The notes beneath the pieces were generated by a model. It had not been told where the DNA came from. It worked only from the letters and a program-made list of their open reading frames with translations, and did not search any database. From Mustelus asterias (lineage: Eukaryota): DNA of 64,000 bases. Position 1 is the first letter of the stretch, and each line of letters begins with the position of its first letter. Both the position numbers and the translations under genes were made by a program. The stretch spans positions 496,001-560,000 of the forward strand of contig NW_027590151.1 of NCBI RefSeq assembly GCF_964213995.1, read 5' to 3'. Positions 7,011-34,471 of the stretch are shown piece by piece.

Positions 7011-7025
7011 CCACCGTCTCACGGC

Positions 7026-7058: not shown

Positions 7059-7070
7059 CACTTACTCTGG

Positions 7071-10815: not shown

Positions 10816-11149
10816 CATAGAATCATAGAAACCCTACAGTGCAGAAAGAGGCCATTTGGCCCATCGAGTCTGCACCGACCACAATCTCACCCAAGCCCTA
10901 CCCCCATATCTATCCACTAATCCCTCTAACCTACGCATCTCAGGACACTAAGGGCAATTTTACCATGGCCAATCAACCTAACCCGCACATCTTTGGACTG
11001 TGGGAGGAAACCGGAGCACCCGGAGGAAACCCACGCAGACACGAGGAGAATGTGCAAACTCCACACAGACAGTGACCCAAGCCGGGAATTGAACCCAGGT
11101 CCCTGGAGCTGTGAAGCAGCAGTGCTAACCACTGTGCTACCGTGCCGCC
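10816..11149 (-). mobile_element. Full-length HE1-type V-SINE
   Basis: tRNA-like head GGCGGCACGGTAGCACAGTGG...GGTTCAATTCCC, V-domain core (gtggagtttgcac...gggtttcctccgggtgctccggtttcctccca) and LINE-derived ctatg-repeat tail. Confidence 0.92.
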
Positions 11150-12752
11150 TGTTACATATAATTTCCTTCTAAGTATTTATGTTTAATATTCTGCCACCAT
11201 TTTAGGCAGTGTGTTTCCAGCTTTGAACAACTGGCAGTGCAACAAGTGAACACGATCATTCAATGCCTTTCCTTCTCTTACACTGGCGTATTTGGATTAG
11301 CGAATATTCTACTGATTGAAACAGTTTTGCGTTATCTATTGCTCACTGCTTCCTGTCCTGGACACAGAGACCATAACAAATAGGAGCTGCAGTCGGCCAT
11401 TTGGCCCATCGAGCCTTTTAAACTATTCAGGGAGATAATTCGTTCATCTACCTCAGCATTATTCTCCCCACACTAAACGCATATCCCTTGATATCCTCAA
11501 TATCTAGAAACCAATCAATCGCCCTCTTGAAAATAGTTGATGACTGAGGTTTCACTGTCCTCAGGGGTTGAGAATTCCAAAGCTTTACCACATCCTTGTC
11601 TGTTCCCCATAATCCTTGACACCCTTGTCAGTCAAAGATCTGTCTAACTGGAATATATTCAATGATCCTCAGCCTCCACTGGTCCCTTTGGAAGAGAAAT
11701 CCAAAAGACTCACAACCCTCTGAGGAAAGAGATGTCTGGAAATATATAACGTAGCTACAGTTCCATATTACAAGATATTCAGATCCCAAGGAATATGACT
11801 CTGTCTAGACGTGACGGTTGAGATTTTTGCCTGTGATTCCTCGTTCAAAATCCTGTGAAATGAGTTTGCAAAAGTCATCACAGTCAGTATAGGATAGAAA
11901 TTCAGAGCAGACAATTCTAGTTTCTCTGGAACATTCTTTCCTATTTCATTCCCAAAAAGTTGTAAATCTCCATCCATATCTATGGATTCTATTTAAAAAT
12001 GAAAGTGGATGGGCACTTGATGGAAATAAACTTTCAGGAGAATGAGGATATAGAGTGGGAATGGGACTGGAATGTTATACAGAGAGTGGGCATGGACTCG
12101 AGTTACCAAATGGATTCCTTCTGTGCTGTAACAACTTTATGACTGGAAATGTATAACATCGCTGCAGCATTATATTACAATGCAAGAAATAATAATAAAT
12201 ATATTTTATTACAGAAACATAAATAATGTATCTAATCTGTGTACCATATAATAACACGAGACATATCTCTGTCCTATATTCATTTACTGTCCCCTTAAAT
12301 GTCAGCCATCTCCTGGGGAAAGCTGCCTTTTAATTATGAACATTCGGAAAGAGACCATCCTTGTAGACAGACTGAGTATAAGTCTAACTGAGTCTAACCA
12401 CTGAGCTATGGAGCCAATCTTTAGCAATTGCGTTGCAATAAATGTATAATAATCCTGGAACAGACTACATTTTCAGATGGAAATAGATATGTCTGAGCGG
12501 GAGAGCAGGGAGTTAAAATATGTGGCTTGTAAGGGACCGAATTTGACATGTGCCAGTTACTTCAAACGATCAATGTTTGCCGTGTGCCTGCCGTTATATA
12601 TTCTTCTTCTGAGTTTATATTTGTTGTTACATCTCTGACTTTTCCACCTCTGATACAATTCATCCAGCTTGAAGATTAACCTTGTTTCTCCCTTCACAGA
12701 TGATGTGAGGCCTAATTTCATTTAATGAAGAATTAAACAAACAAAATGTTCA

Positions 12753-12814
12753 CCCCGTGAGTGGGAATCAATCCCGGGCACGGGGCCGAATCCTGACCAC
12801 TAGACCTCCAGAAG
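12753..12814 (-). pseudogene. tRNA-Glu-derived relic with anticodon arm deleted
   Basis: Minus strand ctggaggtctagtggtcaggattcggc...gcccgggattgattccc matches vertebrate tRNA-Glu 5' and T-arm sequence with an internal deletion. Confidence 0.6.
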
Positions 12815-12939
12815 AGCTCATAAGAGAGATTTGCAATTAGACCATAATCATCGCTTTTCCCATGGCCGCATTTCAGGTCATTGTCTAAACTTTGCCAGAT
12901 AGCCACACGGTTATTCTATCATCTTATAAGCAATTACAG

Positions 12940-13110
12940 CAAATACGTGGCAATCCACCGAACATGCACACCTGGACACTGTGGGAGGAAACTGGACACC
13001 CGGCGGAAACTCACACGCACACGGGGAGAATGTGCAAATGCCGCACAATGACTGAAGGCTGGAATTGAAGCCAGGTCCCTGGCGCTGTGAAGCAACCGCG
13101 CCGCCCACTA
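12940..13110 (-). mobile_element. Degenerate V-SINE
   Basis: Homology to the SINE at 10816-11149 (head and V-domain). Confidence 0.8.
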
Positions 13111-13875
13111 TTCCACAATCACTTACACTGACAGCATTGATTACAAGACAAAGATGTCCGTGGAGACATTGGAAACAACGAAGGCTCCCGGTACTGGCAA
13201 TCTTTCAGCACTTTTACTGAAACGTTGCGCTTTAGAACTTGCCGCGCTCCGAGCCAAGCAGTTTCAGTACAACTGCATCACTGGCTTCCACCTGGCAACC
13301 GGCAAATCAAGCCAAACCAATTACCACCAGTTTGCTCTCGGTCATCACGAATGTGACAGAAGGGGTCAACAGACATGGTTTCAATAAGCATTGACTTCGC
13401 AGTAACCAGCTAACAGTTAATCAGAGATGTCTGAACGATGCAACAAATAGAAATCTTCTCCCGTCAGCCTTTGTTCACACATGGACAAAAGAGATGTGCT
13501 CCAGAGGTGTGGCGAATGTGACTGCCTGTGATATCAAGGCACTTAAAGTGCTTTTCTAAATCGTTCTTCCGTGTTCTTAATGTTGGTGTTCCCGCCTCTA
13601 ACAACTTTTCAGGCAGTGGTTTCCAGATTGCCATCACCCTCTGACCCTCTCTTAATATCTTTCTTCATACCTTAAATCTCTGCCGCCTGGTTGTTCATCC
13701 TTCTACTATGGGGAAACGACTACTCCTATCTGCCAATCCATGTCCCTCAAAATCTTGAACACTCAATCATGTCGGCTCTCAGCATTCTCTGCTCAGGCGA
13801 AATCAGCCCCGAGGTATTCCGTCCCTTTTCACAGCTGAAAATCTCCAGCGCCGTGTCCAGAATTAAAACCACCAG

Positions 13876-13957
13876 TAGCAGCGTTTGGATTGGAGCTCAC
13901 GTCTCCCCAGAGACTGGAACCTAAATCCCACGGCTTAGACCACTCGGCCCCGCAACC
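13876..13957 (-). pseudogene. tRNA-Leu(TAG) pseudogene
   Basis: 82 nt collinear with vertebrate tRNA-Leu (GGTTGCGGGGCCGAGTGGTCTAAG...ATTTAGGTTCCAGTCTCT...CGCTGCTA); B-box/T-arm mutated. Confidence 0.75.
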
Positions 13958-14816
13958 ACCAGAAGTGCAAATTATAATCAGGTATTTTATCGGTATTGCT
14001 ACTTAAATAGCTCAGAGGCAAAGAATTTGGTGTGGCCATTGGGTACTTCGGGTCCGTTCCGTCAATTAATCAGAGAAGTTAACTATGCAACAAAGAGAAA
14101 TGTTCTCCAATCAGAAACTCAATGAGCTTCAGTGAAGGACCGGTAAGATTTAAACTGTCCTTAACCTCGTCTGGTTCCTAATCTCCCGCCAGAAATGACA
14201 ATAAAACTTCCTGTTGAATTTGGTCAGGGTCTTCACTTCAATAAGGGCAGGACATGAGGCGAGACCAGGATTTCTGTACTCTGCAGGGAAATAACTGAAA
14301 TTTGTTTCACGGTTTGGACACGAGCAAAAAATCTTCATATCCTGAACTGTAATCAAAACAGCAGTGAAAGTGTCAAACACTATCCACCAGACCAGCAGGT
14401 TACAGCATGTTTTACAATTGGCTTCATCCACGCTCCTTTTGTTATTTTTAACCTCACTAAAAGCACATTCACCCCAAAAGGTTTCTCCTGAAAAATGACA
14501 TCATCTGCTTCAACACCAGTATGTTCAGCCATTGGTAACATACAACAAACACGCCATTCAATTATTACATTCTTTCCGACAGTTCGAAACCGGACAGCAA
14601 TATTTCCAAATGCTTTTCAGTACAGAGTCAGGGAAACGTTTCATAATTTGTGTTTTTGCGAAATGTCAACAGATATGCTGAGTATTTCCAGAATTCTTTG
14701 ATTGCAAAGTCAGCAGTCACTCGGTAAGTGAAGGTCTGTGGTAGAGAGCACGGCAAGATGGGTTAACTGACACAAGGAATGATAGACAAGGCAACATTGA
14801 GCAGGCGATGCTGGAG

Positions 14817-14888
14817 GCCGGATGGTCTCATGGTTCAGAGTCACCGCTTTCATCGCCAGAGCCCAGGCTCAATGACAGGTGACAAATT
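14817..14888 (+). pseudogene. Highly degenerate tRNA-Glu(TTC)-like relic
   Basis: gatggtctcatggtt...cgctTTCatcgcc..gcccaggctcaat resembles tRNA-Glu; the stems are broken. Confidence 0.45.
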
Positions 14889-15974
14889 GTGAAAATACAA
14901 TTTCGGATGAAAAAAATTGTCTCTTTCTTATTCCTGATCAACTAATCACAATTGCTGTTTCAAAGCAGTGCACCAGGATGAATAACCTCTTCCTGTGCTG
15001 TAACTTTATATAATTGTTTCCTTTTCATCCCCACTGCTGCTGCCTTCACGGCAATTCTATCATCCTACAAACAATTGCAGCTATATCCACCTTCTTCACT
15101 TGTGTTCAGCTCTTATGGCCTCATGGGACTGAGTAAATTCAGTGCGAAGATTATCACTTATCCTGAGATTTGGACCGAGATCTGGGCGATATTTGTGTCA
15201 GTGTAAAAGATAAAGTCCGACCCATTACCACCCAAATATGCTTTGGAACACCATCTCCGTGCTTAGCAGCCTATCGCTCTCCTTTGCTTATTAACACAAA
15301 TTATTGCTGATGCTAGAATCTGAAACAAAAACAGAAAACGCTGGATAGTCTCAACAGTTCTTATAGCATCAGATGAAAGAGAATAGGGACAAGGTTTCGA
15401 GTCCTGATGGCCCACCATCAGAGCTCTGAACCTCCGACAAGGTGATTTCGAAACGTTGGCTCCAATCCCATAGAGTCAAAGAGTCATAGAGTCACACAGA
15501 TTTACAGCATTGAATCAGGCCTTTTTTAACGACCAAGCTAGTTCCAATTGCCCGCGTTTAGCCCATATTCCTCGATAGCCATCTTACTCATGGAACTCTC
15601 TAAATGCATTTTAAAAGACAAAATTGTACCTGCCACTACGACTACATCTGGCAGCTTGTTCCAGACACTCACCACCCTCTGTGTGAAAAAAACTGCTCCT
15701 CTGGATCCTTTTATGTCTCTCCCCTCTCACTTTAAACCTATGCCTTCCAGTTTTAGACTCCCCTACCACTGTGAAAATATATTGACTATCTAGCTGATCT
15801 ATGTCCCTCGTTATTTCATAGATCTCTATAAGATCGTCCCTAAGCCTCCTACTCGCCAGAGCAAAAGTCCCAGTCTATCCAAGCTCTCCTTGTAACTCAA
15901 ACTATCAAGTCCTGGTAGCATCCGAGTGAATCTTTTCTACACTCTTTCTAGTTTAATAATATCCTTTCTATAAT

Positions 15975-17097
15975 CTCACGGGATCCAGGGTGAGGTATCT
16001 GAATGGATTCAAAATTGGCTTCTTGACAGAAGTCAGAGGGTGGTTGTGGAGATTTGTTTTTCAAACTGGAGGCCTGTGACCAGCCGTGTGCCTCAGGGAT
16101 CAGAGCTGGGCCCACTGTTATTTGTCATTTATATTAATGATTTGGATGAGAATATAGGGGGCATGGTAAGTAAGTTTGCAGATGGCACCAAGATTGGTGG
16201 CATAGTGGACAGTGAAGAAATTATCTCCAATTGCAACGGGATCTTGATCAATTGGGCCAATGGACTGACGAATGGCAGATGGACTTTAATTTCGACAAAT
16301 GTGAAGTGATGCACTTTGGTAGATTGAACCAGAGCAGGACTTACTCAGTTAATGGTGGGGCATTGGTGAGAGTTACAGAACAAAGAGATTTAGGGGTAGA
16401 TGTTCATAGCTCCTTGAAAGTGCAGTCACAGGTGGACAAAGTGGTGAAGAAGGCATTCGGCATGCTTGGTTTCATCGGTCAGAACATTGATTACAGGCAT
16501 CGGGACGTCTTGTTGAAGTTATATAAGACATTGGTAAGGCCACACTTAGAATACTGTGTGCAATTCTGGTCACCATATTATAGAAAGGATATTATTAAAC
16601 TAGAAAGCGTGCAGACAAGATTTACTAGGAAGTTACCAGAACTTGATGGATTGAGTTATAAGGAGAGGCTGAATAGTCTGGGATTTTTCTCTCTGGAGTG
16701 TAGGAGGCTGAGTGGTGACCTTATAGACTCCAAACTAGTGAGGGGCACATACAAGGTAGATAGTCAATATCTTTTCCCAAAGTTAGGGGAGTCTAAAACT
16801 AGAGGGCATAGGTTTAAGGTGAGAGGGAAGAGATACAAAAGTGCCCAGAGGGACAATTTTTTCACACAGAGGGTGGTGAGAGTCTGGAACAAGCTGCCAG
16901 AGGTAATAGTAGAGGCGGGTACAACTTCGTCTTTTGAAAAGCATTTAGAAAGTTAAATGGGGTACGATCGGTATAGAAGGATATGGGCCAAATGTGAGAA
17001 ATTGGGATTAGCTTAAGGGTTTTAAAAAAAACGGCGGCATGGACAAGTTGGGCCGAAGGGCCTGTTTCCATGCTGTAAACGTCTATGACGCTATGAC
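15975..17097 (+). mobile_element. CR1 LINE 3' fragment inserted antisense into a related CR1
   Basis: ORFs 16040-16309 and 16231-16956; (ctatga) tail; flanking direct repeat TCTATAAT at 15967-15974 and 17098-17105. Confidence 0.9.
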
Positions 17098-17944
17098 TCT
17101 ATAATAGGGTGGCCAGAACTGTACACAGTATTCCAAGTGTGTCCTTATCAATGTCTTTTACAACTTCACCAAGACGTCCCAATTCTTGTATTCAATGTTA
17201 TGACCAATGAAACCAAGCATTCCGAATGCCTTTTCATCTCCCTGTCCACCTGTGACTCCACTTTCAATGAGCTATGAACATGTACCCCGAGATCCCTTTG
17301 TTCTTTAACTCTCGCCAATGCTCTACCATTAACTGAGTAAGTCCTGCACTTGATCGATCTACCAGAATGCATCATTTCGCATTTCGTTAAATTAAACTCC
17401 ATCTGCCATTCGCCAGCCCACTGTCTGAATTGATCAGGATCCCGCTGCAATCCGAGATAACCTTCTACACTTTCCACCGTGCCACCAATCTTGGTGTCAT
17501 CTGTAAAGTTACTAACCATGCCTCCGAAATTTTCATCCAAATCATTAACACAAATGACAAATGAAAATGGACCCAACTGCGATCCCTGAAGCACACTGCT
17601 GCTCACAGGCTTGAAAACCAACCCTCTACCAGCACCCTCCGTGTTCTGCATCAAGGCAATTTTGTATCCATTTGGCTACTTCACCCTGGATCCCGTGAGT
17701 TTTAATCCCATGCAACAACTTACCATGCGGTACGTTGTCAAAGGCCTTGCTAAAGTTCATGTAGACAACATCGACTGCACTGCCCTCATCTACCTTCTTG
17801 GTTACCCCTTCAAAAAACTCAATCAAATTTGTGAGACATGAATTTCCACTCACAAAGCGATGCTGACTGTCCCTAATCAGTCCTTGCCACTCCAAAAGCC
17901 CTTAGACCCTGTCTCTCAGAATACATTTGAGCAACTTAGTTAGC

Positions 17945-18295
17945 AGAGGCGATGGCCTCGTGGTCTCATCCTTTAACTATTAATCTAGAAATTCAGCTAC
18001 TTTTTGGGGACCGGGGTTCGAATTCCACCATGGCAGATGGTGGAATTTGAATTCAATAAAAAAATATTTTGAATTAATAACCTACCGATGACCATGAAAC
18101 CACTGTTGACTGTTAGGAAAACCTATCTGGTTCACTAATGTTCTTTAGGGAAGGAAATCTGCTCCATCGCACAGTCTGGCCTATATGTGACATCAGAACC
18201 ACAGCAATGTGTTTTCCTCTCAACTACCTTTGGGCAACTGGGGATCGGCAATAAATGCTGGCCAGCCAGTGACACCCATGTCCCACAAACGCATG
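17945..18295 (+). mobile_element. tRNA-derived SINE nested in CR1
   Basis: A box tggcctcgtgg, B box ggttcgaattcc, and LINE-like tail ggcaataaatgctggcc. Confidence 0.75.
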
Positions 18296-20523
18296 TAAAA
18301 ACTACAGGTGTGAGCTCACTGGCCCGTAATTCCCAGGCTTTTCCGTGCAGCCCTTTTCAAACAAAGGCACAACATTTGCCACCCTCCAGTCTTCGGGCAC
18401 CTCACCTGTGACTATCGATGATTCAACTATCTCTGCTAGGGGACCTGCAATTTTCTCTCTAGCCTCCTACAACGTCCTAGGATACACTGCAGCAGGTCCC
18501 GGGGATTTATCCAACGGGATACGCTTTAAGACTTCCAGCACCTGTTCTCTGTAATATGTAAACTCCTCAAAACATTATTTATTTCCCTAATTTCCGGAAC
18601 ATCCATGTCCTTCTGATGGTCTCTCTGCAAAAATGCCCTCAGACGTGCTGAGATATGCGAGCCCACTTCTGGTCTCCCTCATCATTCGGAACATTCTTTC
18701 TGAAACTACCCTGTCTCAGCCTGTTAGAATTTTGTCAGTTGCTATGAGTCCTCCCTGAGTCTTCTAAATTAGAGTGAATGGCATGCTAACTGACCTCCTC
18801 ATACGACAGACCTGCCATCCCAGATATAAGCCTGGTAAACTTTCGCTGTACTCCCTGCAGGACAATGAAATCCTTCCAAAGATAATGATACCAAAACTGC
18901 ACACAATACTCCCGATGTGGTCTCACCAACATCCGATACAATTGCAGTAATGGATGAAGAGGCTTGAAAGGCTGAATGGCCTGCCCTTGTCCTTATTCCT
19001 TACGGCCTCATGTTTTGGAACTCTCTTTCTCAATAAGCAGTGGCAGCAGAGAGTTCATTATTTTAAAGGTAGATGTGGATGTTTTTGCTGTGTCATACGT
19101 GATTGGTGATCAGGTGCAGGTGGAGTGCAAATTTGATGTTAGAATTAAGTTTTGAAACGGAGGAGCGGGCTCCATGGGCTTAATCGCCTACGTATCTTCC
19201 TCTTTTGACTGTTCATACGACGATCTGAGAGGCAAAACTTTGCTCATCATTGTCTTTAATGAGCGGCCCCTTACTTTAGATTCTCACCGAAGTGGAAACA
19301 TTCTGTGCACATCCACAATGTCAACATCCCTCAAGATTTTAAACTCTTCCATTAAGTCGCCTCTTACTATTCACACTTCCAGTGTGTACATGTCTACTCT
19401 GTCCAACCATCTCCATGAGACAACCCGCTCATTACTGGAAATCGTTTAGTAAACCTTCTCTGGACTGTCTCAAAGACATTTACATTTCCCTTTTTATATC
19501 GATAGCCAAAGGTATACACATTATTTCTAATATGGGCTCACCATCTGAAGGTTTTGAACATGCAAGGCCACGGAGCAGTTGATAGAATGTGGGATTAGAC
19601 GGAGCCACTAATTCCATTTGTCTCTGTTGTATCCGGAGATGCATGATGGGCTGAATGGCCCGTTTCTGTACCATTACCTTTCTATTCTTCTGTATATCAC
19701 CAGAGTTTTGTGCAACTGAATGGGTATGTCTAAATAATATTGGGTATAATTCAGGTTAAATATGTCATTTTTTGTCAGGTTTACAAATAGGCTGGACTGA
19801 TGATTGTTTTAACTCCGACCAAAAATAACAGAAGGAATTAAATATTACCAGGTAGAGTGAATTGAAAGTGCAATATATTTTGAGAAGGCAGCACGTACAA
19901 ATCGAAGGAATTGCTTCCACACAGGCTGAAAGGAGCAAGTCGTGAGGAAGAAGATGTAAGTTTGAGTGAGGGACACAGGACACATCCTCACTTATCACCA
20001 GTAATACAGGAAATGTTACGTGTGTTTCGGAAAGCAGGTTGGACACGTCATTTGCCTCTCCCTCCGATTAATCTCCATAAAATAATATTTGTGAACAATA
20101 CCAGGGTAAATGATTATTTTTATCGGATTAAGACCTGTTTCTTGCTGAATACCAGCAGTGCAATATTTCCAATCATCCTACTTCCGGCATCTCACTTGTA
20201 TCAGCGGAAGGATCAACATTATTCCCCGAATCTGCAGCTATTTCACGATGACAACTTCATTGAAATTCTGAAATTCTAGATGACATTATGTGATAGAAAT
20301 ATTCCTAACTGTTTTAATTCACTTCAGTTCAGTAACATAGTGTTAACCAATAATCCCAGCTTTCACCACTCCTTGGACCAATGTGTTTGTCTTCAATCAG
20401 ATAATTTACTGTGATTGCAAAAGGCTTTCAAGAAACATGTAATTTGCAATAAAAGCTGAATTCATGTTGTTTGTTCAGCGATTGTGATTAATGTCAGTAG
20501 GTACAGAGTTTAATTGTTTCACC

Positions 20524-20548
20524 GGGGACTTTCCTCGGTCTATAAATA
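20524..20548 (+). promoter_or_regulatory. Putative GPCR promoter: canonical NF-kappaB site plus TATA box
   Basis: GGGGACTTTCC (20524-20534) followed by TATAAATA (20541-20548), ~90 bp upstream of the ATG at 20638. Confidence 0.7.
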
Positions 20549-20637
20549 GGCAATGTTTTTATCGTGCACACCACTGTTAAAAATGAGAGTGGCCTCCAGC
20601 ACAACCAGAGATCATTGAAGCTCAGAGTCGGTAAACT

Positions 20638-22102
20638 ATGTTCTGGGTTGTTCCACTTGAGTTTCGTATAATTTGGGTACTTCACGATATCCAAAGTACT
20701 TACTACCCACTCCTCGCTGCAGTTGGTGTGACTGGTGAGTCTAATTTCACTCCGGTTATTGCCCGTGTCCATGAAAAGCACTTAATAATATTATTATTTG
20801 CAAACGTTATGTTCCTTATGTGCTAATGCAGTTGGAAGATTTCTCTCTCCTCCCGGCAGCCATTCTCCCTACTCGCGCCTGGTGGTTGCACTCTATTTCC
20901 TTCCCTTCCCCCTCTCTGCCAACATCCCCCCCACCCCATCTCCTTGATCACCCCATTCGTTCCCCATCTCCGCCGGCTTCTTTGCTGCCTTGGAGATCAG
21001 ATCTGTTGGTGAATCTGGTTTCTTGCTACATCAGTGCGGTGCTTTATGACTGTACACCCTGTCTCAGCAGAACAGATGAATCAATTTTATTCTTCGGCTG
21101 ATTCTGTAAAAATGCTGCAGCTGTTCCATAGAATCCTGACAGACCACTGCTCCTGTTTTCAGTCTGAAATGTGAGTTAATTGTGTCTCTCTTCCTTACAG
21201 TGAACTTAATAACGATTCTTATACTGTCTCGAGGAAAATGTGGACTTTCCAAATGTGTCACACGTTACCTAATCTCCATGTCAGCGGCAGATCTGCTGGT
21301 CGTCATCATTGATCTCATGTTGAGGCAAATTCCTATCATTTTTAGTGATCAATTTCTATTCGTCTATAATATTAAAGTGTGTAATATCCATGCCGTCCTG
21401 CTTTATGCTGTCACTGATTGTTCTGTTTGGTTTACTGTCACGTTCACCTTTGATCGATTCGTGGCCATTACCTGGCAGAAGCTGAAAATAAAATACTGCA
21501 CCGAGAAAACGGCAGCTGTGGTTCTCGGAACAGTGAGTGTGCTGTTCAGTGTAAAGAACACTTTCTGGTACTTCATGTGTGAGGATACATATTTGTTTGC
21601 AAATTCTCCCTATTTTTGTTCTGTACTTTCAGGTGTCAGGAATTCACCAATATGGGGAGCAGTTGAAAATCTACATTATATTTTAACACCGTTTGTTCCT
21701 TTTTTGTTGATTCTGCTGCTCAATGTTTTAACCGTTAAACATATTCTAATGTCGAGCAAAATCCGCAAGAGATTTCGGAGCCCCACGAGTGGCGAGATTG
21801 CAACTGACCCAGAGATAGAGAAGCGAAGGAAATCTATCATCTTACTGTTTTCTCTATCTGCAAATTTTATCCTGTTATGGTCAGTGTACCTGTTCAGTTC
21901 TTTTTGTCTACGATTGTATGATTTACGTGTAATCATTTTCGACATACCTGGGTGTGTAATCGGACTGGGATTTATGCTTCAACTCCTGAGTTGCTGCACC
22001 AACACATGCATTTATGCAGTGACCCAGACACAATTCAGAAAGGATCTGAAGAAGCTGGTGAAATTTCCATTTACTCGGATTGTGAAGTTAATTAAAGAGT
22101 GA
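20638..22102 (+). CDS. Class A orphan GPCR, GPR139-like; exon 1 20638-20734, exon 2 21201-22102, 332 aa
   Basis: Exon 1 MFWVVP...YYPLLAAVGVT with G|GTGAGT; acceptor ttccttacAG joins in frame to VNLITILILSRGKCGLS; TM2 AADLL, TM3 FTFDRFVAI, TM7 NTCIY; seven hydrophobic segments; no stops. Confidence 0.92.
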
Positions 22103-22914
22103 GCAGATATTCCACCATCACAGCATGTTTGTCTGGGGTCTGCACAGATTAAGTGATGAACAGGAATTAGAGAAATAGTAAAAATGAAATTATTTGGCAC
22201 CTGATGAATTACTCCGGATTTGAACCATTTAAATGTTCTGATGTATCATGAGCTGGGCACATTGAACTCCAGTGTAGAGTGTCCTCCTTTTTACCTGGGA
22301 GGGATGTTATTGACTGCAGCATTTTCCTTCAGCTGCAACATACCTCCTCCCCCCCCCCCCATGAAAAGAGCTGTCATTCCATCCTTCAAGCACAGCCCTA
22401 CCCTCAGCCCATCGGCATTATCACCTGCACCATCCCACCCCCACTCCCACCCACAGCACCACCCCGCACCGCCCCCCCCCCCCCCCCCCACCACCACCAA
22501 CAGCCTTCAGCGCCACACCCATCCCCAATAGTGAACGCTGTGGATTGGATGAGGAATGAATCAGAGTGGATGAGGACACTTTTCTGGGTTCGATTCAAGC
22601 ATCTATGTATTCTAATTCCATTTTCTAGCACTTGACCCGTAGTCTTGTATATTATGGCATTTCAAGTGCTCATCTAAATACTTCTTAAATGATGTGATGG
22701 TTCCCATCTCTATCTCCCTATCAGCCAGTGAGTTCCAAATTTCCACCACCTTCAGGATGAAAATGTTTTCCTAACATCTGCTCTAAAACTCATGCCCCTT
22801 AAAATCAATTCATGCCCCTTGGTTATTGATCCACCTGCTAAGGGGGAAAGTTCTTCCTCTCCGCCCTATTTGTGCCATTCATAATTTTATACACTCCAAT
22901 CGAAGACATTTATT

Positions 22915-23215
22915 TGTTTAATGTTGTCACAAAGAACATAGCATGTATTAATGCTGCAATTAAGTTGTTGTGAAAATCCCCTAGTCGCCATACTCCGACG
23001 CCTGTCGCTAAACTGAGGGATAATTTAGCATGGTCAAAGCACCTAACCAGCTTGTCTTTCGGACTGTGTTCGGAAACCAGAGCACCCGGAGGAAACTCAA
23101 ACAGACATGGGGAAAACGTGCAGACACCACACAAACAGTGACCCAAGCTAGCAATCCAACCTGCGTCCCTGGCGCTGTGAGGTATCAGTACTAACCACTG
23201 TGCCATTGTACCTCC
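22915..23215 (-). mobile_element. V-SINE
   Basis: tRNA head and V-domain; abuts a CR1 fragment at ~23215-23470. Confidence 0.82.
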
Positions 23216-24051
23216 AATCAGGTTCCCCCCCCCCCCCCAGGCTTTTCTGCTGTAATGAAAATAACTCCAGCCTATGCAACCTCTCTTCATGGCCGAAACG
23301 ATCCAGGCCAGGCAGCATCCTGGTGAAGTTCCTCTGCACCTTCTGTAGTGCAATCACGTCCATCCTATTGTGTTACGTCCAGAACTGCACACAGTAATCC
23401 ATCTGTGGCCTCAGAAGTGTTTTATTTTGCTTCATCATAACATCCCTATTCTTGCATTCAATCTCATTCTCTTCCTTCCAGAATGATTATAAGGTTACTC
23501 TTGTCCCCACTTTTCACATCACCAGCGTCTGCATTCACTGAATAATCCTCCACTATTTCCAGCAATTCGAGCATGATGCCATGACAAGAAGAATGCGTTT
23601 AGAAGAATGGTGGGTGATCTCATTGCGGAATGTAAGATGCTAACGGGGATTGACAGAGTGGACATAGAGAGGATATTTCCACGTGTGGGGCAATCTAGAA
23701 CGAGAAGTCATGGCTAAAGGGACAGCAGATTTAGAACAGATGAAGATAAAATTATTTTCTTAAAAGGTTGATAATCTGTGGAATTCTGTATCCCAGAGTG
23801 CTGTAAATGGTAGGTCATTGAGTACATTTAACGCGGATATCGACATTCTTAAAATAAACCTTTTCACAAAATTGATCTCTGTTGGTTTTACATCCCAGAG
23901 GACGTCCTCACTTCATATCACTCACTCAGAATTTTCATCCATTTCTTTCTCCATTATCTCTTTATTTCTCTTCCCTTTGACTGCATCCAGAATCTTCACC
24001 TCCCCAATCCTTATGGTAGTGATGATAGGAGGGGAACATTGTTATTACCGT

Positions 24052-24330
24052 GGGCGGTAGTGGCACAGTGGTTAGCATTGCTGCCTCACAGCGCCACGGA
24101 CCTGTGTTCGATTCCCGTTTTGGGTCACTGTCTGTGTGAAGTTTGCACGTTCTCCCCTTGTCGACGTGGATTTCTTCCTGGTGCCCCGGTTTCCTCCCAC
24201 AGACTGAAAGATGTGTTGGTTTGGTGCATTGAACAGAACAGGCGCCAGAGTGTGGCGACTAGGGGAATTTCACAGTAACTTCATTGCAGCGTTAATGTAA
24301 GCCTTATTTTTCACTAATAGATAAACTTCA
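24052..24330 (+). mobile_element. V-SINE
   Basis: gggcggtagtggcacagtggttagc...gttcgattccc head, V-domain, and aatgtaagcc tail. Confidence 0.85.
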
Positions 24331-25446
24331 ACTTTTAAAAATAAATAATCTAATTTCTAATTATCAAATCAACTCATGATCACCGAGTCCGTGGGCTGAA
24401 CACACATCCCCATTCTGCTCAAATCCATCAAATAGACAATCCGCTTTCCCTCACCATTTAGTTCATTTACAATGTGTTGTTTATCTATTTCCCATTCTGG
24501 TCTTTTCCAATCGCTGAGGACCCAATGTCCGCCGCTATCGACTGCAGGGAATTCTCACCATTATAGAGTAGCGATTTAAATTAGAGCACCCAGAAGAGGT
24601 ACTGGAAAACCAAAAGCTATTTCACCTCTCTATCCACGCCCGAGAGATTGGAAATGTTATACGGTCATCATTCAGTTTGATTGCATTCCAATTCACTGCA
24701 GTGAGATGTTTCCCTCTTTAACAACAGTCCTGATGAGAATCTTGTTTTGTTGACTTCCAGAAACATAGAAAATAGAAGCAGGAGTAGGTCATTTGGCCCT
24801 TTGAGCCTGCTCTGCTGTTCAATATGATCATGCCTGATCCCTTATCTCAACACCATTCTCCACTGATCTCCCCAAACTCCTTGATGCTTTCAGAGTCTGA
24901 ATATATCTCAGAAGGAAATAGATATATTTCTAATGTTTTGGCTTCCACAGCCTTCTGTGCTGGTGAATTCCACAAGTTCACCACTCTCTGCATGAAGATA
25001 TTTCTCCTCATCTCACTCCTAAATGGCCTACCCCATATCATATTTCATATATTTTAATCATGTTTGATTTCAGGCATTATCAAGACCATCTTAGTTTTGG
25101 ATAGTCTTTCATAACCTAAAAATAACTCACTAAATTTTCCCTGACTTTTTTTCCTAAATTAACCCAAATTCAAGTAGAAGTATTGTTGTGCAAAATAAAT
25201 AGTTTTTGACACTGAGGAACCACCTGACTGTTAGTTGTTAGTTTCTTTTTGTTCTGACCATGTGATTATTCCCTTAAACATTCCATTTGGATGTTTGAAT
25301 CAGCCAATCGTATCAATTTATTTTGTCAATTTCAAGTTGAGGAACAATCTCTTAAGATAAAGCAAATGACTGCGGCTGCTGGAATCTGAAACAAAACAGA
25401 AAATGCTGGGATCTCAGCCGGTCTGACAGCATCTGTGGAGAGAATA

Positions 25447-25487
25447 GAGCCGACATTTCGAGTCTAGATGACCCTTCATCAGAGCTC
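25447..25487 (-). ncRNA. Minimal type-I hammerhead ribozyme motif in a Penelope-like repeat
   Basis: gagct-CTGATGA-a-gggtc(atcta)gactc-GAAA-tGTC-ggctc: intact core, stems I and II pair. Confidence 0.7.
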
Positions 25488-25604
25488 AACAATTACATCC
25501 AGCCTTGTTGACTTTAAATGGTGATTTACATCAGCGACATAAACGCTTGCAATCGGTAATATGAGGCTGACTCTGATTGTCATTATTGCTGTTGTTTCTG
25601 TTAG

Positions 25605-25948
25605 AATGGACCCTCCAAGACAAAGTGGAACAAATGGATCCTGAAATATCGGTTAAAGAGGAAAGTAATGTCACACTAACCTGTACCTTGAAAACAAGCG
25701 ATTCCAGCCCTAATGTGTACTGGTACAGTTAGCAGCCCGGGAAAGCTCCAGTGTACATGTTTCAGCTTATAGGAGAGAACGTGCAAAGGAACACCGACCT
25801 CAATGATCGGTTTTCTTCCAAATTTAATAAAAAGAACACGATTACCGAACTAACGATCAGTAACACACTGATCTACGACAGCGCCGTGTACTTCTGTGCC
25901 ACGAAGCCCACACTGCTGCAGAGATATAGTGAATGCCGTGCAAAAACC
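25605..25948 (+). pseudogene. TCR V pseudogene (paralog of the V at 7103-7406)
   Basis: WTLQDKVEQ...VTLTCTLK...VYWYS* (TAG 25730-25732) QPGKAP...DSAVYFCATK; RSS CACACTG (25909-25915), 24 nt, GCAAAAACC; leader exon not identified. Confidence 0.9.
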
Positions 25949-25954
25949 CCAGAC

Positions 25955-25987
25955 TTCCAGTTAGTGCCCAGCAGGGTGCGCTCACAC
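25955..25987 (+). promoter_or_regulatory. CTCF-like motif just 3' of V RSS
   Basis: TTCCAGTTAGTGCCCAGCAGGGTGCGCTCACAC; core starts ~20 bp after the nonamer. Confidence 0.6.
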
Positions 25988-27263
25988 ATTATCGCAGGTA
26001 ATACAGTTTCCACAGAGTGTCGAAAACTCTTAACATTGCAACAAATGACAACACTCAAAAACAGCAACTGGTGTGGTCCCATTGCAGTTATATTTGTCAA
26101 TGATCGTAACTGACATGTGCAATTGAATTAAGATTGACAAATCGATCTGAGATACATCAACGCCTTCTCTTTGGTTTTCGATGCCTTTCCCTGCCTATTT
26201 GTCCCAGACTGTCCTTGTCTGCTGATTTATGGAAATTGTGAACCTTTCCCTTCCCCAACCTTTAACGTAAACATTTAAAGCTTTTTCTGTTACCTCGTAC
26301 ATTCATTGAGAACCTCTCCAATCCAGCTACTCAGCTATTCGGTCCCACTTTCCATCTACATCACTGATGAAGATCCTGCTTTGTATTGGATCATTTACTA
26401 ACCCTGACCTTCCTGGTGCGAGACTGTTGGTCCGCGGTATGGAATGAACATTCAGCTGCCGCTCCTACAGACAGGCAAATTTATATGATTTCCAATGTGA
26501 TAGTGTTATTGAGTTCAATTCCTTGCAGATAAATTCTACTTCTCACCACACTGCCTATGGCAGCCACACCCACAGCTTTCCTGTGTGGTTCTCACTTTGA
26601 CCTGCCTCATCTGTGTTGTTTTATTAGAGATTTTATTGTAGATATTGACCTTTGCTGCTTTTCCCGGTTTGGCACCGATTGGATCAGCAGTCCAATGGCG
26701 TGGCAAGCTATACTTCCACTCTGAAAGAGGATTTCACAGGCGGCAAAGTTACAAATTGAGGGAAGATCGTATGGAAATATCACAGACTCTTCATTATTCT
26801 ATCACTTCTTGTGAAGTACATGTTTCAACTAAAAATTCATCCTCCCCCGCACTGTAGCTGCTATCCCAAACATGATTGATAACAAACTGCTTGACATGTT
26901 GCTGTAGGGATGAACATTGTCATTCTCCATGTCAGAACAGACCCATCAACACTCAGGGGACCGGTCGGTTCATGAAATAACTGTTGAAGAGGAAAATAAT
27001 CCCCTGCCGTGGGATGGCCAACTTCACTTTGTTCCTTCCGTCTCTCCGCCTATGGGGTGAATTGGAGATAAAGGAGCTGTGAGATCATTGGGTGAACTGA
27101 AGAACAAAGGAGCTTGAAGCCGATTGGATGTCATCTGATGATGTTTCCAGCAGTGAACCAATCCACAGGGGCCTGGATATGACTCCGCCTCTTTCAACTC
27201 TTGACTGAAACAATGACATCTCCCACCCGCTCTGGTCAGATCCGCCGCGAGCTCTCTGCAAAC

Positions 27264-28912
27264 ATGTCTCCTGTTACTCGGTATTTATTCCTCACAGCGG
27301 CAGCTCTGTTAACCGGTAATTTCACAAGTTGCTCAAGTCTGTGTTACACATCATTACCACACACTATATTCTGTCAGGCAGTTCCTTCAATGCGAGGGGG
27401 AGGGGGTCGGTGATGAGGGAACGGATTGATCTCAACATCGAAAAGTTACCCGGATTTCGCTGGTCTCATCACTGAACACTGTTGGGATTGGGCACATTTC
27501 CCCCAGGGATTGATAGAGAATGAGTTGGTCTCAGATTCCAGCTCCTCTGATACCAGTGAATCACTTTGGCAAACATCACACTTCAAACAGACCGTGAGCA
27601 GTTTCCAGTTACAGGGACTGAAGTCGAGGAACTGATCTCGTTAGAAAGAACAATGTTTATCGTGGAAGTTTTATTGAATCGCCACAAAAACTTCCCAATC
27701 CAGCCGCTGAACCTTCTCTCTCAGATTATTTTTGCCGATAACGGGCGAATTCTGGGGGAAACGGAGTCAAGTCACAATGTTTAATTTAATATTTCTTTGG
27801 ACTTTTCCAGGACATTCCCGAGGAGATTCTGTTTCACAGACAGCGGCTGCAGTCACCGTCACTGAAGGAAATGATGTTAGGTTGCTCTGTAATTACACAA
27901 GTACAAGCAGCGACCTTTATCTATTCTGGTACCGTCAGTATCCCAGCGGATCATAAGACCATAAGACCATAAGACATAGGAGCGGAAGTAAGGCCATTCG
28001 GCCCATCGAGTCCACTCCACCATTCAATCATGGTTGATTTCAACTCCATTTACCCGCTCTCTCCCCATAGCCCTTAATTCCTCGAGAAATCAAGAATTTA
28101 TCAATTTCTGTCTTGAAGACGCTCAACGTCTCGGCCTCCACAGCCCTCTGTGGCAATGAATTCCACAGACCCACCACTCTCTGGCTGAAGAAATTTCTCC
28201 TCATCTCTGTTCTAAAGTGACTCCCTTTTATTCTAAGGCTGTGCCCCCGCGTCCTAGTCTCCCCTGTTAATGGAAACAATTTCCCTACGTCCATCCTATC
28301 TAAGCCGTTCATTATCTTGTAAGTTTCTATCAGATCTCCCCTCAACCTCCTAAACTCCAATGAATATAATCCCACGATCCTCAGACGTTCATCGTATGTC
28401 AGGCCTACCATTCCTGGGATCATCCGTGTGAATCTCCGCTGGACCCGCTCCAGTGCCAGTATGTCCTTCCTGAGGTGTGGGGCCCAAAATTGCTCACAGT
28501 ACTCCAAATGGGGCCTAACCAGTGCTTTATAAAGCCTCAGAAGTACATCCCTGCTTTTGTATTCCAAGCCTCTTGAGATAAATGACAACATTACATTTGC
28601 TTTCTTAATTACGGACTCAACCTGCAAGTTTACCTTTAGAGAATCCTGGACTAGGACTCCCAAGTCCCTTTGCACTTTAGCATTATGAATTTTGTCACCG
28701 TTTAGAAAATCCATGAAGTATCTTCTGCACACAAATAAATACACCGGGAACACAGGGAGATCCAAAGGGGACCGTTTTTCAGCGGAACTCAATGATACAA
28801 CCCGCACAGTCCCGCTGAAAGTGTCTAAAACAGAGCTGACAGACTCCGGGGTTTATTACTGCGCACTGAGTCCCACAGAGACACAGAGCTGGGCTGAACC
28901 TGCACAAAAACT
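27264..28912 (+). pseudogene. TCR V segment disrupted by a CR1 insertion (leader 27264-27315; V exon 27811-27952 and 28712-28873)
   Basis: Leader MSPVTRYLFLTAAALLT; V halves GHSRGDSVSQ...FWYRQYPSGS and MKYLL...VYYCALSP are otherwise open; intact RSS CACAGAG (28874-28880), 23 nt, ACAAAAACT (28904-28912). Confidence 0.93.
27953..28708 (-). mobile_element. Young 5'-truncated CR1 LINE inserted in a V exon
   Basis: Open RT C-terminal ORF; (cataagac)n tail; short ATC duplication/microhomology at the junctions. Confidence 0.95.
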
Positions 28913-29109
28913 GCCAAAGCCTCACTCAACACAACAGAGCGTTAGGCAAACATTGTGATCAGAGTGAGTCTGATCTGGAACCTGAAATCGTGTTGTTATC
29001 TCAAACTTTTAATTCTAATATATATATATATATGTATTAATAATAAATATATTACCAAACTAAAACAATGGGGGCAGCTTAGGGAATGAACATTTCACTA
29101 TTTGTACAG

Positions 29110-29390
29110 TTTGATGTCCCAAAGTGTTTCCCTGTCACTGTGGAAAACACAGCAGCCAATTTGGACTCAGTGTGACATTTCATTCAGTAATATTGTAGTG
29201 TTCTCTCTGTTTCAGTAATTGTGATTGGTGAACAGATATCAAACAGGACATTTCTCTGCTCTTCTTGGAAACAGTGACCATGTGATGTGTCACCTCCAAC
29301 TGAGAGGGAACACGGTGCCCCCGATTGAACAGGTCACCGAGTGGCTGGCAGCTCTGAAGGTGCAGCGTTCCCTGAGCACGGCACTGTCCC
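29110..29390 (-). mobile_element. Old DeuSINE (SacSINE1/AmnSINE1-like) relic
   Basis: Minus strand cagtgccgtgctcagggaacgctgcac...ccctctcag...ttccaagaagagcag...aaattggctgctg resembles the Deu domain as I recall it. Confidence 0.6.
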
Positions 29391-29939
29391 CTCGGTAAGT
29401 TCCCGGATTCTTATTCCTGCCAGACTGCCTGTGTCCTCTGGAGCGGAAAGAATATCTGAACCGACTGGAGACAGAATCCGGGAAATCCTAGGAAGTGGTG
29501 GCCACTCATTAATCCAATCCGGGAAAGAAACGGATTTAAATTTAAAAAATGAAATTAAAAATAAACTTTTCTGGCCGTGGAAATATGAAGACAATGAATT
29601 TAATCTCCAGAAAGAAATTTCAGTCGAAAACAGCAGTAAAGATTTTTATTGATGCCTTTTACAGACTTCCGATGTCCAAAAGCACTTTCTAACCCAAGGA
29701 AGCTCATTTCCAGTGTCGTGCTGTGGTGATGTTAGAAACTTTATTAACACAGAATACAGTGGGAATGTTTAATTCTCTGTCAGACAGGGTTGCCACACTG
29801 ATCCTGGAGTAAAGAGATTGCGGAGTCCAGGTATTTGAAGGTTACTTTGAACTCTCTCACACACAAGGACACACGCACACACTCTCCCTCTGTCTCTCGA
29901 TGCAAAATCTCTGTCAGAGAGTGTGGCAAAACCTGTGCA

Positions 29940-30251
29940 AAATCTCACTAACTGTCCTGTCTGGAGACAATACACATCTGTTTAACCTGTGCTTAATGCT
30001 CCCTCCACTCACATTGTCTGTACCTTTAAGACTTGATTAGCTGTAAAGACTCACATTCCAATCATTATTCATGTAAATTGAGTTTGTGTCTTTGTGCACT
30101 GTTTGTGATCAGAACTCCCACCCACCTGACGAAGGGGCAGCGCTCCGAAAGCTCGTGGTTTTTGCTACCAAATAAACCTGTTGAACTTTAACCTGGTGTT
30201 GTTAGACTTCTTACTGTGTTTACCCCAGTCCAACGCCGGCATCTCCACATC
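29940..30251 (+). mobile_element. Penelope-like element terminal repeat fragment
   Basis: Contains a hammerhead followed by gctaccaaataaacctgttg...ccagtccaacgccggcatctccacatc, a block recurring near 43.0, 48.4, 49.6, 50.8 and 57.9 kb. Confidence 0.7.
30122..30158 (+). ncRNA. Minimal type-I hammerhead ribozyme motif with intact core
   Basis: ccac-CTGACGA-a-ggggc(agc)gctcc-GAAA-gCTC-gtgg; palindromic AGCT stem III; predicted cleavage after C30154. Confidence 0.78.
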
Positions 30252-31229
30252 TTGTCTAGGTCACCAGAGGAACAGATTGCGAAATCATGAGACATATCTT
30301 TATGGCGCAATGCATGCAGTTAACCTCCAAATCTACTTCAGAGCAGCGGTAATGCAAGCTCCCAGATGTAGAGATCATGTAGCCAAAAATTACTGTTATA
30401 TCATCTTCCAGGGCCGTTAACTGAGATTGCGCCAGCAATTCCTAGAACCAAACATTGGATGTGTCAAAGTCTGCTGTAGTTATGAATACTTGGATTGCTC
30501 AATAATAATTTCAACACAGACTCACCTCGTTAAAAAGGCTGTATTATCCGACAGTACCACGCACCACTTCCTGAATCAGTCGCTAATCAGCCATGCTAAA
30601 CTCTCCCTCAGTGTACCCGAACAGGCGCCGGAGTGTGGCAACGAGGGGATTTCCACAGTAACTTCACTGCAGTGTTTATATAAGCTTACTTGCTACACTA
30701 ATGAATAGACTGAAGCACTGAACTTCTGATCTAACCAATGACAGAAATCGACCAGCGGCAGCAATGTCTCGAAAAGCACAATGGTGTTAGAATGAAAAGC
30801 AGCAACCGGAAACTGTGGCCGGGGTCACCGCAGACTCAAAGCTGATGGAAGTGCGGAGTTCTCAGCGGCAGTCGCAGGTGATGGAGAGGAAACAGCGACA
30901 GCTGAACCTGCAGCAGTCTGTGACTAGCCTGCATCTGCTGACTGCTCAAGTGACTGAGAAAAAATAGTGACGGACGGGCGCGAATGGATCAGAAACAATT
31001 GACTCTCCCTGTGGCTCAATGAAAGATCTTTCCCAATTGCTCTTCTCACCCCGCATTCCACGAGTTGTTTTCCGTTCTCAAGGTCTGGCAATGCCTTTTT
31101 GAAATTTACTATTGAATGCTCTTCCTTTATAGTTTGTGGCGCTCTACTCCAGATGGTAACAAGTGGCAGTGCAATGAATAACATTTATCGATCCCTGTCC
31201 ACTTTTCTGTGAAAATGGGATGACTTGGT

Positions 31230-31620
31230 CGTTTATTTATCGAACAGGTGCATTGCTGTCTTTGTTCGTTCAAGTCAACAGCGAACCGGTCCGAGAGACC
31301 TTGGGACCTATCTCAATGTCTGGCCCTCTACCACTTCATTAAATATCCCATAACTTACCCGGAATACTGCTCTGTCTAGATAGGTACAGAAAGCTTTCAG
31401 ATATGGAGTGACTGTCCCTTAGCACTCCTGACTGGTCTTTCAGAGCGTTCAACTCCGATGGAGTCTGGGAAACTCAATGTCTGTCACTCGTCCCTGCAGC
31501 CGAACTTAGAATGTGTCACAGACTGGAATGGGATTTATCACAGGAAATAGACAAGGATCCTTTTAATATTGACTCACCGAATACCACGATTATTCCAATT
31601 TGGAAGCACCATGGAACATG
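31230..31620 (-). pseudogene. Heavily degenerate, 3'-truncated TCR V pseudogene
   Basis: Leader-like PWCFQIGIIVVF with G|GTGAGT (ends 31578); ctgcAG acceptor (exon from 31493); residual VSQTPSELNALKDQS and GLSDRFAVDLNE; no RSS found. Confidence 0.65.
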
Positions 31621-32016
31621 CGCTGCCCGGATGACATTTCCACAGAAAATAATCCAATTTAAATGTATTTTATCCGTTCTGTTTTGATTTTAAAGAGTAA
31701 ACCCAAATCGGCAACAGATCTCACTGGCCGTGGGGAAGATGTTTCCGTTAGTAGGTGAATCTCGGATCCGAGATCACAACCTCGGAATAAAGGGACGGCC
31801 CTTTAGAATCGAGATGAGAGCAATTTCCTCAGCCAGAGGGTGGTGAATGTGTGGAATTCATTGCCACAGAAGGCTGTGGAGGCCGGGTCATTGGGTGTAT
31901 TTAAGACAGAGATAGATACGTTCTTGATTGGTAAGGGGATCAAAGGTTACTGGGAAAAGGGGAGAAGAATGGAGATGAGAAATTTTGCAGCACGACTGAA
32001 TGGCGGAGCGGACACG

Positions 32017-32224
32017 ACCCCCTCCCCCCCACTCCCCCCATCCTCCCCCCCACTCCACCCCTCCCCCCCACTCCCCCTCTCCCCCTACCCCTCCTCCCCC
32101 CCACTCCACCCCCCTCCCTCCACTCCCCCTCTCCCCCCACTCCCCCCACTCCCCCTCCCCCCCACTCCCCCTCCCCCCCACTCCCCCTTCCCCCCTCACT
32201 CCCCCCCCCCACTCCCCCCCCCCC
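32017..32224. repeat. C-rich low-complexity tract (G-runs on the minus strand)
   Basis: Reiterated C4-C10 runs separated by a/t/ct. Confidence 0.9.
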
Positions 32225-33211
32225 ACACTTCTCTTTCAGGGCAACTGCCTTAACCACCTTTACCTCTGCTCTGCTATTCTGATCGCTTAATGGACATTTT
32301 TAGTATCTCTCTCAGCCATCTTTATCGTTATTTGCATTCCCTTTGTCCAATTACAGCATCCCCCTTCCACCCTCATAATTTAAATCTTTTCTGCTTTTCT
32401 TTGCTCTTAGCTCTGACGAAGGGTCATCCAGACTTGAATCGTTGGCTAGTTACTCAATATTTGTTTTGTTATTCGATATTAAATATGAATACATGTATTT
32501 AATACATACATCTTCATTCTGAGTTGAATATCTCGGGAATATGCAACATTGAATTGCAAACATGACTGACCAATAAAAGAAATCGAGTCACTGGGTAATA
32601 CACATCCCATGGTGCTTATTTGAGACAGTCAGCTTTTAAACAATATCAAATATCTTTAAAGGGAAAAGATTTAATAATGATTTGCTAGTTATACTTGATC
32701 CCTCTTTATTCTGCATGTGAAACATTCTGGCGCCGAGCTCCCGTTCATCTGTAGAAAAGTCCAGCAGATCTACACTGAGTTTCGATTTACTCATCTGCCT
32801 GAGTGATTTTTTTCCCATTTCTTTATTATGAAGAACAATTTTAAAAATATGCTTCCGGGAAATGTGCGCCATTTCCTCCAGTTCAGTTAGTTTCACTTGT
32901 GTCTGTCTTTATGAGCACACACTACTATTACACATGTTTCAGATGATGATTAACTATGTTAGTCTGCATTTATAAATCCAATATATTATGTTATGGACTG
33001 AACAAGTTGCTAATGTGCGCACGGTGTCAAAGTACAAACATTTATTTCCTCATTGCGTCTTAAAATACAGCATTTCTGCTGTTGCTGAGAGCATTTGTGG
33101 CCGAGGTCAGAGCAAAGATAACATGGTTACAACATCGAGATTCGGATAATGTTCAGCAACAACTGAAACCATGGAAAACTTCCCTCATACTAAATGAATA
33201 ATTTCAATAAA

Positions 33212-33284
33212 AGTTTCTGCCCGGTTTCGAACCGGGGACCTTTCGCGTGTGAGGCGAACGTGATAACCACTACACTACAGAAAC
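33212..33284 (-). tRNA. tRNA-Val(CAC)
   Basis: GTTTCTGTAGTGTAGTGGTTATCACGTTCGCCTCACACGCGAAAGGTCCCCGGTTCGAAACCGGGCAGAAAC: full cloverleaf and intact A/B boxes, followed by TTTT; discriminator is T rather than A. Confidence 0.9.
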
Positions 33285-34313: not shown

Positions 34314-34386
34314 TATTTCGGCATGGTTTTGAACTAGGGACCTTTCGTGTGTGAGGTGAATGCAACCACCATTACACTACAGAGAC
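34314..34386 (-). pseudogene. tRNA-Val(CAC) pseudogene (duplicate)
   Basis: Collinear with 33212-33284 but D-arm, T-arm and acceptor stem are mismatched. Confidence 0.82.
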
Positions 34387-34471
34387 TGCTGGCGTCCATA
34401 GGACCCAATGGGACTCTCTTGGAATGTTGCAACATTCATTGGGACTGCTGTAGACATATTGATCCAAGAAT

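Follow-up and report, generated by a model that had tools for sequence, protein, structure and literature searches.

The 64-kb window (the whole stretch of DNA analysed, G000:C119:496001-560000) contains an intact two-exon class A G-protein-coupled receptor (GPCR) gene within the V block of a TCR-delta / NAR-TCR minicluster, and on balance we favour the view that this gene is a passenger copied together with the block, and that the kappaB-like 10-mer in its promoter was inherited and is probably not a selected NF-kappaB switch. When spliced, the two exons give a 999-nt coding sequence for a protein of 332 amino acids with no internal stop; exon 1 and its donor are common to the paralogues, and the N-terminus matches a model from a distant shark (P0004). 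An earlier note made from the sequence had described an intact 332-aa two-exon seven-transmembrane gene amid mostly decayed V segments, and this is what is present, with six of the eight V exons in the surrounding block broken (by stops and frameshifts, and in one case split by a LINE) and two open (at 2455 on the minus strand and 6038 on the plus strand). Four contigs over the gene cover the intron, have no spliced joint and have no bearing on expression. The features of the gene are as follows:

20583..20618, plus strand: 11-codon upstream open reading frame within the predicted 5' UTR, with an ATG that is missing from most paralogues
20638..20734, plus strand: GPCR coding exon 1 (32 codons plus one nucleotide) with the ATG at 20638 and a GT donor at 20735
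20735..21200, plus strand: intron, GT...AG, phase 1, with the AG acceptor at 21200
21201..22102, plus strand: GPCR coding exon 2 from TM1 to the C-terminus, with DRF, W6.48 and NTCIY, and the stop codon at 22100-22102

The 332-aa protein matches Pfam 7tm_1 (E = 1.4e-12, 48.1 bits against a curated cut-off of 30.5) and has a predicted seven-helix fold (model pLDDT 62) for which the best Foldseek matches are all class A GPCRs with TM-scores of about 0.6; GPR139 appears at rank 15 in this listing, which was obtained with a model of modest confidence. Among the class A motifs, DRF and W6.48 are present while P6.50 and the NPxxY proline are missing, and no relative of the exon-1 peptide was found among solved structures. 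By domain and predicted fold the window gene is a class A (rhodopsin) GPCR for which signalling is predicted; the protein would sense a small ligand by way of its variable extracellular loops and couple to G proteins.

The solved structure matching the family profile best is human GPR139 (PDB 7VUG/9M42, E = 1.3e-14), and the window protein alone matches GPR139 with E = 0.017, ranking below muscarinic M4. The description GPR139-like, which had been given to the gene earlier, is appropriate for the nearest solved relative by profile but not for an orthologue, as the fold alignment gives only 21% identity. Human and zebrafish GPR139 orthologues are given as 70% identical and the gene as having two exons (PMC7318219), and the pocket residues named in one account are F109, H187, W241, R244 and N271 (PMC5430874), where the window protein has Y, H, W, Y and F, respectively (read by eye off the profile alignment). 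The window gene is therefore like the vertebrate GPR139/GPR142 genes in having two exons, an aromatic residue in place of F109 and the H187 and W241 positions, and unlike them in the changes at R244 and N271 and in belonging to a shark family with hundreds of copies where there is one gene in the vertebrate case. As Y and F take the places of the polar R244 and N271, agonism by Trp/Phe is not predicted for the window receptor. We excluded a GPR139 orthologue on the basis of the 21% identity (against a benchmark of about 70%) and the altered pocket.

Further comparisons place the window gene in a large family. At least 131 scored matches were found in its own genome among 6079 candidates (a lower bound and not a copy number), and 2023 relatives were found in the databases, with 119 of the 120 listed being shark, skate or ray models auto-named GPR139 with 50–71% identity. 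The cartilaginous-fish models referred to as 'probable G-protein coupled receptor 139' (e.g. P0004, XP_067836333.1) resemble the window gene in their 60–71% identity, short exon 1 and TM motifs, and differ in that their names were assigned automatically only. A quick tree of 50 rows placed the window gene in an own-genome subfamily of 11 rows (SH-aLRT 99) nested inside a cartilaginous-fish clade of 40 rows (SH-aLRT 96), with no true GPR139 row included. By sequence, the window gene is a member of a massively expanded shark orphan-receptor family. We note that salamanders, coelacanth, teleosts and amphioxus have relatives with 27–33% identity (P0240, P0246, P0251, P0271 and P0269), also auto-named GPR139, and the receptor lineage seems to be older than sharks. 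We rejected the idea that a virus or transposon had carried the family, as the intron, a dN/dS of less than 1 and segmental homology at the kb scale are what ordinary segmental duplication would leave. A literature search for published descriptions of a shark GPR139-like expansion found none, and the main texts of PMC11979771 and PMC8455134 have no matches for GPR1 or receptor 139; in passages of the latter, these fishes are described as GPCR-poor (PMC8455134).

The surroundings of the gene are those of an antigen-receptor locus, in which the following features were identified:

2450..41928, no strand assigned: V block, an inverted copy of C119:600001-644666 (95–99.5% identical), with the source arm downstream of C-delta
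2480..2919, minus strand: open V with a 23-RSS, which would join by inversion and keep the GPCR gene
6038..6409, plus strand: open leader-V (V6038) with a 23-RSS at 6371
54025..57720, plus strand: NAR-TCR cassette with NAR V (RSS at 54336), D, J (55121) and supporting V-delta
54728-54744, plus strand: D of the NAR-TCR cassette, with a 12-RSS on both sides
57368-57680, plus strand: leaderless supporting V-delta with a 23-RSS
57978..61410, plus strand: four J segments, near 58.0, 59.4, 60.7 and 61.4 kb

Ten V exons were identified in the window (an RSS-like signal at 46704 was left out of this count), and the NAR V and supporting V at 54–57.7 kb are both open. The J segments near 60.7 and 61.4 kb have no GT donor, and beyond the window there is a fifth J with both RSS and donor at C119:561666, followed by C-delta at C119:572689. 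Database models of the C exon continue into the TCR transmembrane segment, though they are labelled 'alpha chain-like', and NAR-TCR is described as a delta chain (PMC5931798). The NAR V-D-J, the leaderless supporting V, the J segments and the C with a transmembrane exon identify this as a TCR-delta / NAR-TCR locus. C90 and C106 each have a 12/23 D segment ahead of J, and none was found in the interval from the supporting V to the J segments in C119 (window 57720-61410) or C96 (1437000-1455000); the C119 and C96 clusters would join V directly to J, alpha-style. We also note that the J at 61349 (window 60705-61410) has a good 12-RSS and has lost its splice donor, and could serve as a non-productive rearrangement sink. 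Elsewhere in the window (8350-10833, minus strand) there is an open 827-aa reverse-transcriptase frame from a LINE, which we take to be of the CR1/L2 type, among many decayed copies.

The two arms of the inverted duplication are 99.2–99.3% identical around the GPCR gene, and an intact twin of the gene is found at C119:625304, beyond C-delta. In C90 and C106, too, there is a 95–99% identical copy, which as with the C119 twin is on the strand opposite to C-delta and 55–60 kb downstream of it, and a GPCR copy is absent from the 200 kb examined near the C96 cluster. As the C90 and C106 copies and the C119 twin are all downstream of C, the upstream position of the window gene is a recent and local derivative. 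It is the upstream inverted arm that puts the gene between V6038 and the J segments, and we regard it as highly improbable that this arm arose artificially in assembly or from a haplotype, as despite being 99.2% identical at the gene, which would favour such an error, the arms are distinguished by seven amino acids of the receptor, by a LINE insertion and by a segment of about 8 kb with two more V genes, and C96 also has V genes flanking its cassette on both sides. The LINE fragment (window 28040-28690) splits a V exon and is missing from the 99% identical inverted arm; this insertion is very recent and dates the duplication.

The earlier note had also proposed that rearrangement of V6038 would delete the GPCR gene clonally. 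In the 81 kb examined (C119:436001-517000), no open plus-strand V other than V6038 was found upstream of the gene, and its 23-RSS could pair with the plus-strand 12-RSS of the J segments downstream in a deletional geometry. If V6038 were joined to the J at C119:561666 or to that near 58.0 kb, 52–59 kb would be deleted, and with it both the gene and the NAR-TCR cassette. The deletion is thus geometrically possible, but clonal loss would spare the intact 99% identical twin beyond C-delta and so amount to the loss of one of two near-identical copies. Few cells would be affected, this being a single V in a single TCR-delta cluster out of at least 19, with minus-strand V genes inverting instead, and we expect that RAG-mediated deletion from V6038 would take the copy out of a minor fraction of gamma-delta T cells and would matter little because the twin remains. 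Passenger genes of this kind are described in part of the mammalian literature, where trypsinogens in TRB and olfactory receptors flanking TRA/TRD are carried with the locus and trypsinogen loss by rearrangement is expected (PMC7696796). Both the mammalian passengers and the shark GPCR are non-TCR multigene families which sit in or beside a V field and are deletable; the shark GPCR differs in having been amplified with whole TCR-delta/IgH units and in being mostly downstream of C.

Linkage between the GPCR subfamily and antigen-receptor clusters, which it had been suggested should be looked for, is clear when paralogues are divided by their identity to the window gene. In the group with at least 68% identity, 26 of 55 had a listed C exon (IgH-type or TCR) no more than 300 kb away, compared to 2 of 76 below 68% (Fisher p = 4e-10, inflated by the non-independence of the copies). 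This count used 80 of the 150 C1-set rows and 19 TCR C rows, having dropped as a group the rows from C13, C8, C22, C16 and C185 (probably other families) as well as second exons of the same gene; retaining C185 adds one to the distant group. The C exon of C96 is presumably IgH-type, and is the sole exon of the linkage set read as such. The close GPCR subfamily sits among IgH and TCR-delta clusters, which is new, and the strength of the linkage fits co-regulation and hitch-hiking equally well. In elasmobranchs, TCR alpha/delta V exons and NAR-TCR cassettes are known to be interspersed with IgH clusters (PMC12227049, sections 6 and 15, table S1), and the locus here is alike in the scattering of TCR V and NAR-TCR between IgH clusters. 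It is unlike in having at least 19 delta-type C exons where TCR alpha/delta in that complex is a translocon, and in the presence of the receptor, there being no mention of a GPCR in the antigen-receptor complex in the text or supplements of PMC12227049.

We suggest that the subfamily would have long been resident on the antigen-receptor chromosome and multiplied with the IgH/TCR-delta units. The linkage would also be expected of a lymphocyte-expressed receptor repertoire, driven by NF-kappaB and/or EBF, retained within the Ig/TCR complex so that regulation is shared, and altered in copy number by V(D)J recombination. We consider this unlikely, and while the deletion geometry of V6038 and the age of the subfamily (a distant shark has a relative with 71% identity) favour it, the C90 and C106 copies are downstream of C-delta, a position in which joining of a V gives an inversion and not a deletion, and members bearing the kappaB-like site are also found on C23 and C75 which have no listed Ig/TCR C exon.

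A role for NF-kappaB had been suggested by the promoter, of which the relevant features are:

20471..20492, plus strand: promoter blocks TTGTTCAG and TGTGATTAAT, conservation 0.92–0.95 over 20 paralogues and among the best 10-mers
20509..20528, plus strand: TTTAATT block followed by TCACNNGGGA, the top-ranked conserved windows (0.955)
20524..20534, plus strand: kappaB-like site GGGGACTTTCC, which matches GGGRNWYYCC
20541..20548, plus strand: TATA box TATAAATA, with a 6-bp spacer to the kappaB-like site

The claim that GGGGACTTTCC lies 6 bp before TATAAATA upstream of the gene is exactly so in the sequence, and presumably a gap of this length would set a Rel dimer against the TFIIA/TFIIB contacts predicted upstream of the TATA box, with transcription starting some 30 bp below it. 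The kappaB consensus is not enriched in the 64-kb window (4 observed compared to 7.1 expected), and in windows simulated with an order-1 Markov model the exact 10-mer occurred somewhere in 30/200 and the consensus within 60 bp upstream of TATAWA in 38/200. The other kappaB-above-TATAWA pair in the window, at 30645-30677, is in repeat-like sequence. The placement of the site at the TATA box of this gene exceeds chance for a single gene, but is explained by inheritance.

We aligned the promoters of 20 further paralogues (13 fetched loci plus 7 group representatives from 40 matches) and found that 9/20 matched GGGRNWYYCC, with the 10-mer having a conservation of 0.805 where the promoter as a whole averages 0.77, which ranks it 81st among 188 windows, and TTTAATTGTTTCAC, TTGTTCAG and TGTGATTAAT having values of 0.92–0.96. 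The kappaB consensus was present in 3/9 intact and 6/11 broken paralogues (p = 0.41), and together with TATAWA in 0/9 and 2/11; TATAWA was found in 3/9 intact paralogues and a (T/A)AAAT core in 8/9. TGTGATTAAT was retained with no more than one mismatch in 9/9 intact and 9/11 broken paralogues, and TCACNNGGGA, in which the two N positions vary freely, in 7/9 and 5/11 (p = 0.2). It should be noted that these intact–broken contrasts are not significant and are underpowered, and that the copies are not independent. The commonest older state of the kappaB-like site is GGGACATTCC, with an A-to-T change producing the canonical form in the clade nearest the window gene, and a kappaB-compatible 10-mer is likely to be ancestral in the subfamily with GGGACATTCC as the ancestral state. 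Three 99% identical copies keep both kappaB and TATA, which is uninformative given their near-identity, and none of four distant promoters (L094, L097, L104 and L120) match the consensus, with L097 one base off; exon 1 was located in just 17/40 of the loci scanned, which leaves the distant subfamilies thinly sampled. In most paralogues a long intron puts the promoter more than 1.5 kb upstream of exon 2.

The earlier note had suggested from the site that the receptor may be immune-inducible, and had itself named a lack of conservation of the kappaB site in orthologues or paralogues as a ground for refuting this. In the paralogues this is largely the case: no intact paralogue has both kappaB and TATAWA and only three have the kappaB consensus, so that with a rank of 81/188 selection on the site is not supported. 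The kappaB-like 10-mer is probably an inherited stretch of promoter rather than a selected NF-kappaB switch, and immune induction of the window gene seems unlikely. For the lymphocyte repertoire described above, the consensus in 9/20 paralogues and its probable ancestry are favourable, but the absence of the joint kappaB and TATAWA arrangement from the intact paralogues and the middling conservation of the 10-mer are not.

An alternative source for the match is suggested by the better-conserved blocks. We take TTGTTCAG and TGTGATTAAT to carry a homeodomain-like core and TCACNNGGGA to be an EBF/O-E-like half-palindrome, the GGGA of which doubles as part of the kappaB-like site. The pattern suits an EBF/O-E-type palindrome supplying GGGA beside a homeodomain-like TAATT, and we propose that this module would drive the start and give the GGGA half of the 'kappaB' match. 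Further upstream is a conserved TTTGCAAT block (window 20443-20453) of low information, which we presume resembles C/EBP or octamer sites. EBF also acts as a B-cell factor, and therefore the rival TCACNNGGGA motif does not exclude lymphoid use. A composite Lhx2/Ebf motif with a homeodomain core and a degenerate Ebf site at fixed spacing is described for mouse olfactory-receptor enhancers (PMC5608512), and the window promoter similarly has a homeodomain-like core adjoining a degenerate Ebf-like site at fixed spacing, though this is a loose likeness without a scored match, and here the elements are in the proximal promoter of a non-olfactory-receptor family rather than in enhancers. Expression might be expected in a tissue common to the rest of the family, with chemosensory epithelium as a first guess.

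Comparison of the window gene with 14 paralogues gave dN/dS values of 0.30–0.41, which shows purifying selection on the subfamily over the long term. Among the four near-identical copies we counted 11 nonsynonymous and 2 synonymous changes (derived from pairwise counts), and no recent constraint on the window copy was detectable among them with these small numbers. The window branch has 5 nonsynonymous changes to 1 synonymous, including one that puts G where the family has E, at a residue aligning with GPR139 D268, the upstream ATG is derived, two of the three closest copies are frameshifted within the last 11 codons near the C-terminus, and there is a broken paralogue 54 kb upstream. These suggest a young and unconstrained duplicate heading to decay, open by recency and making little or no protein. 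We find this doubtful, as the reading frame, splice sites and promoter are all intact and the counts are too small to tell neutrality from mild selection. The broken paralogue (L055, C119:462179-464445) has an 8-bp deletion in exon 1, and together with 11 loci like it (L056-L066) makes about 12 amplified dead copies which are often 110–125 kb from C-delta, showing that amplification of the unit carried dead GPCR copies along no less readily than intact copies.

The unit itself has been multiplied. The C-delta exon has at least 19 matches (of 40 candidates scored) which are 81–100% identical and have no stop, located at C119:572689, three times on the single 20-Mb contig C71, and on C90, C96, C106, C110, C111, C115, C123, C138, C154, C173, C181, C401, C436, C850 and C3311. 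Some of these may be haplotype duplicates, though three share one contig. Of the five C-delta loci examined, all have J segments upstream and four have a NAR-TCR cassette, and on C96 and C71 there are IgH-type C exons within 50 kb of C-delta. On C71 (10999000-11044000, L170-L175) an IgH-type V/J/C cluster is directly upstream of TCR V, J and C-delta in the same orientation, an arrangement which would be a ready substrate for IgH-V to TCR-delta trans-rearrangement. Shark TCR loci have been described as translocons (in parts of PMC12227049 and the review PMC6795676), and a literature search at listing level found no multiple shark TCR-delta C genes in print.

The window gene itself is one among many and its surroundings matter more; with its relatives, hundreds of class A receptors are concealed under the GPR139 label in supposedly GPCR-poor fishes. 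An old GPCR subfamily which has followed the antigen-receptor chromosome provides a direct route to asking if any member is immune. It is a long shot that this unrecognised subfamily of the antigen-receptor complex, multiplied with TCR-delta and IgH miniclusters, is driven in lymphocytes by an element in which EBF and NF-kappaB sites overlap, with V(D)J recombination adding or removing copies clonally, but if true it would be a second, non-rearranging receptor repertoire on shark lymphocytes. The repeated TCR-delta miniclusters are possibly more interesting than the GPCR finding, as if confirmed they would mean that a shark TCR locus has moved from a translocon to an Ig-like cluster organisation, which raises questions of allelic exclusion and inter-cluster rearrangement.
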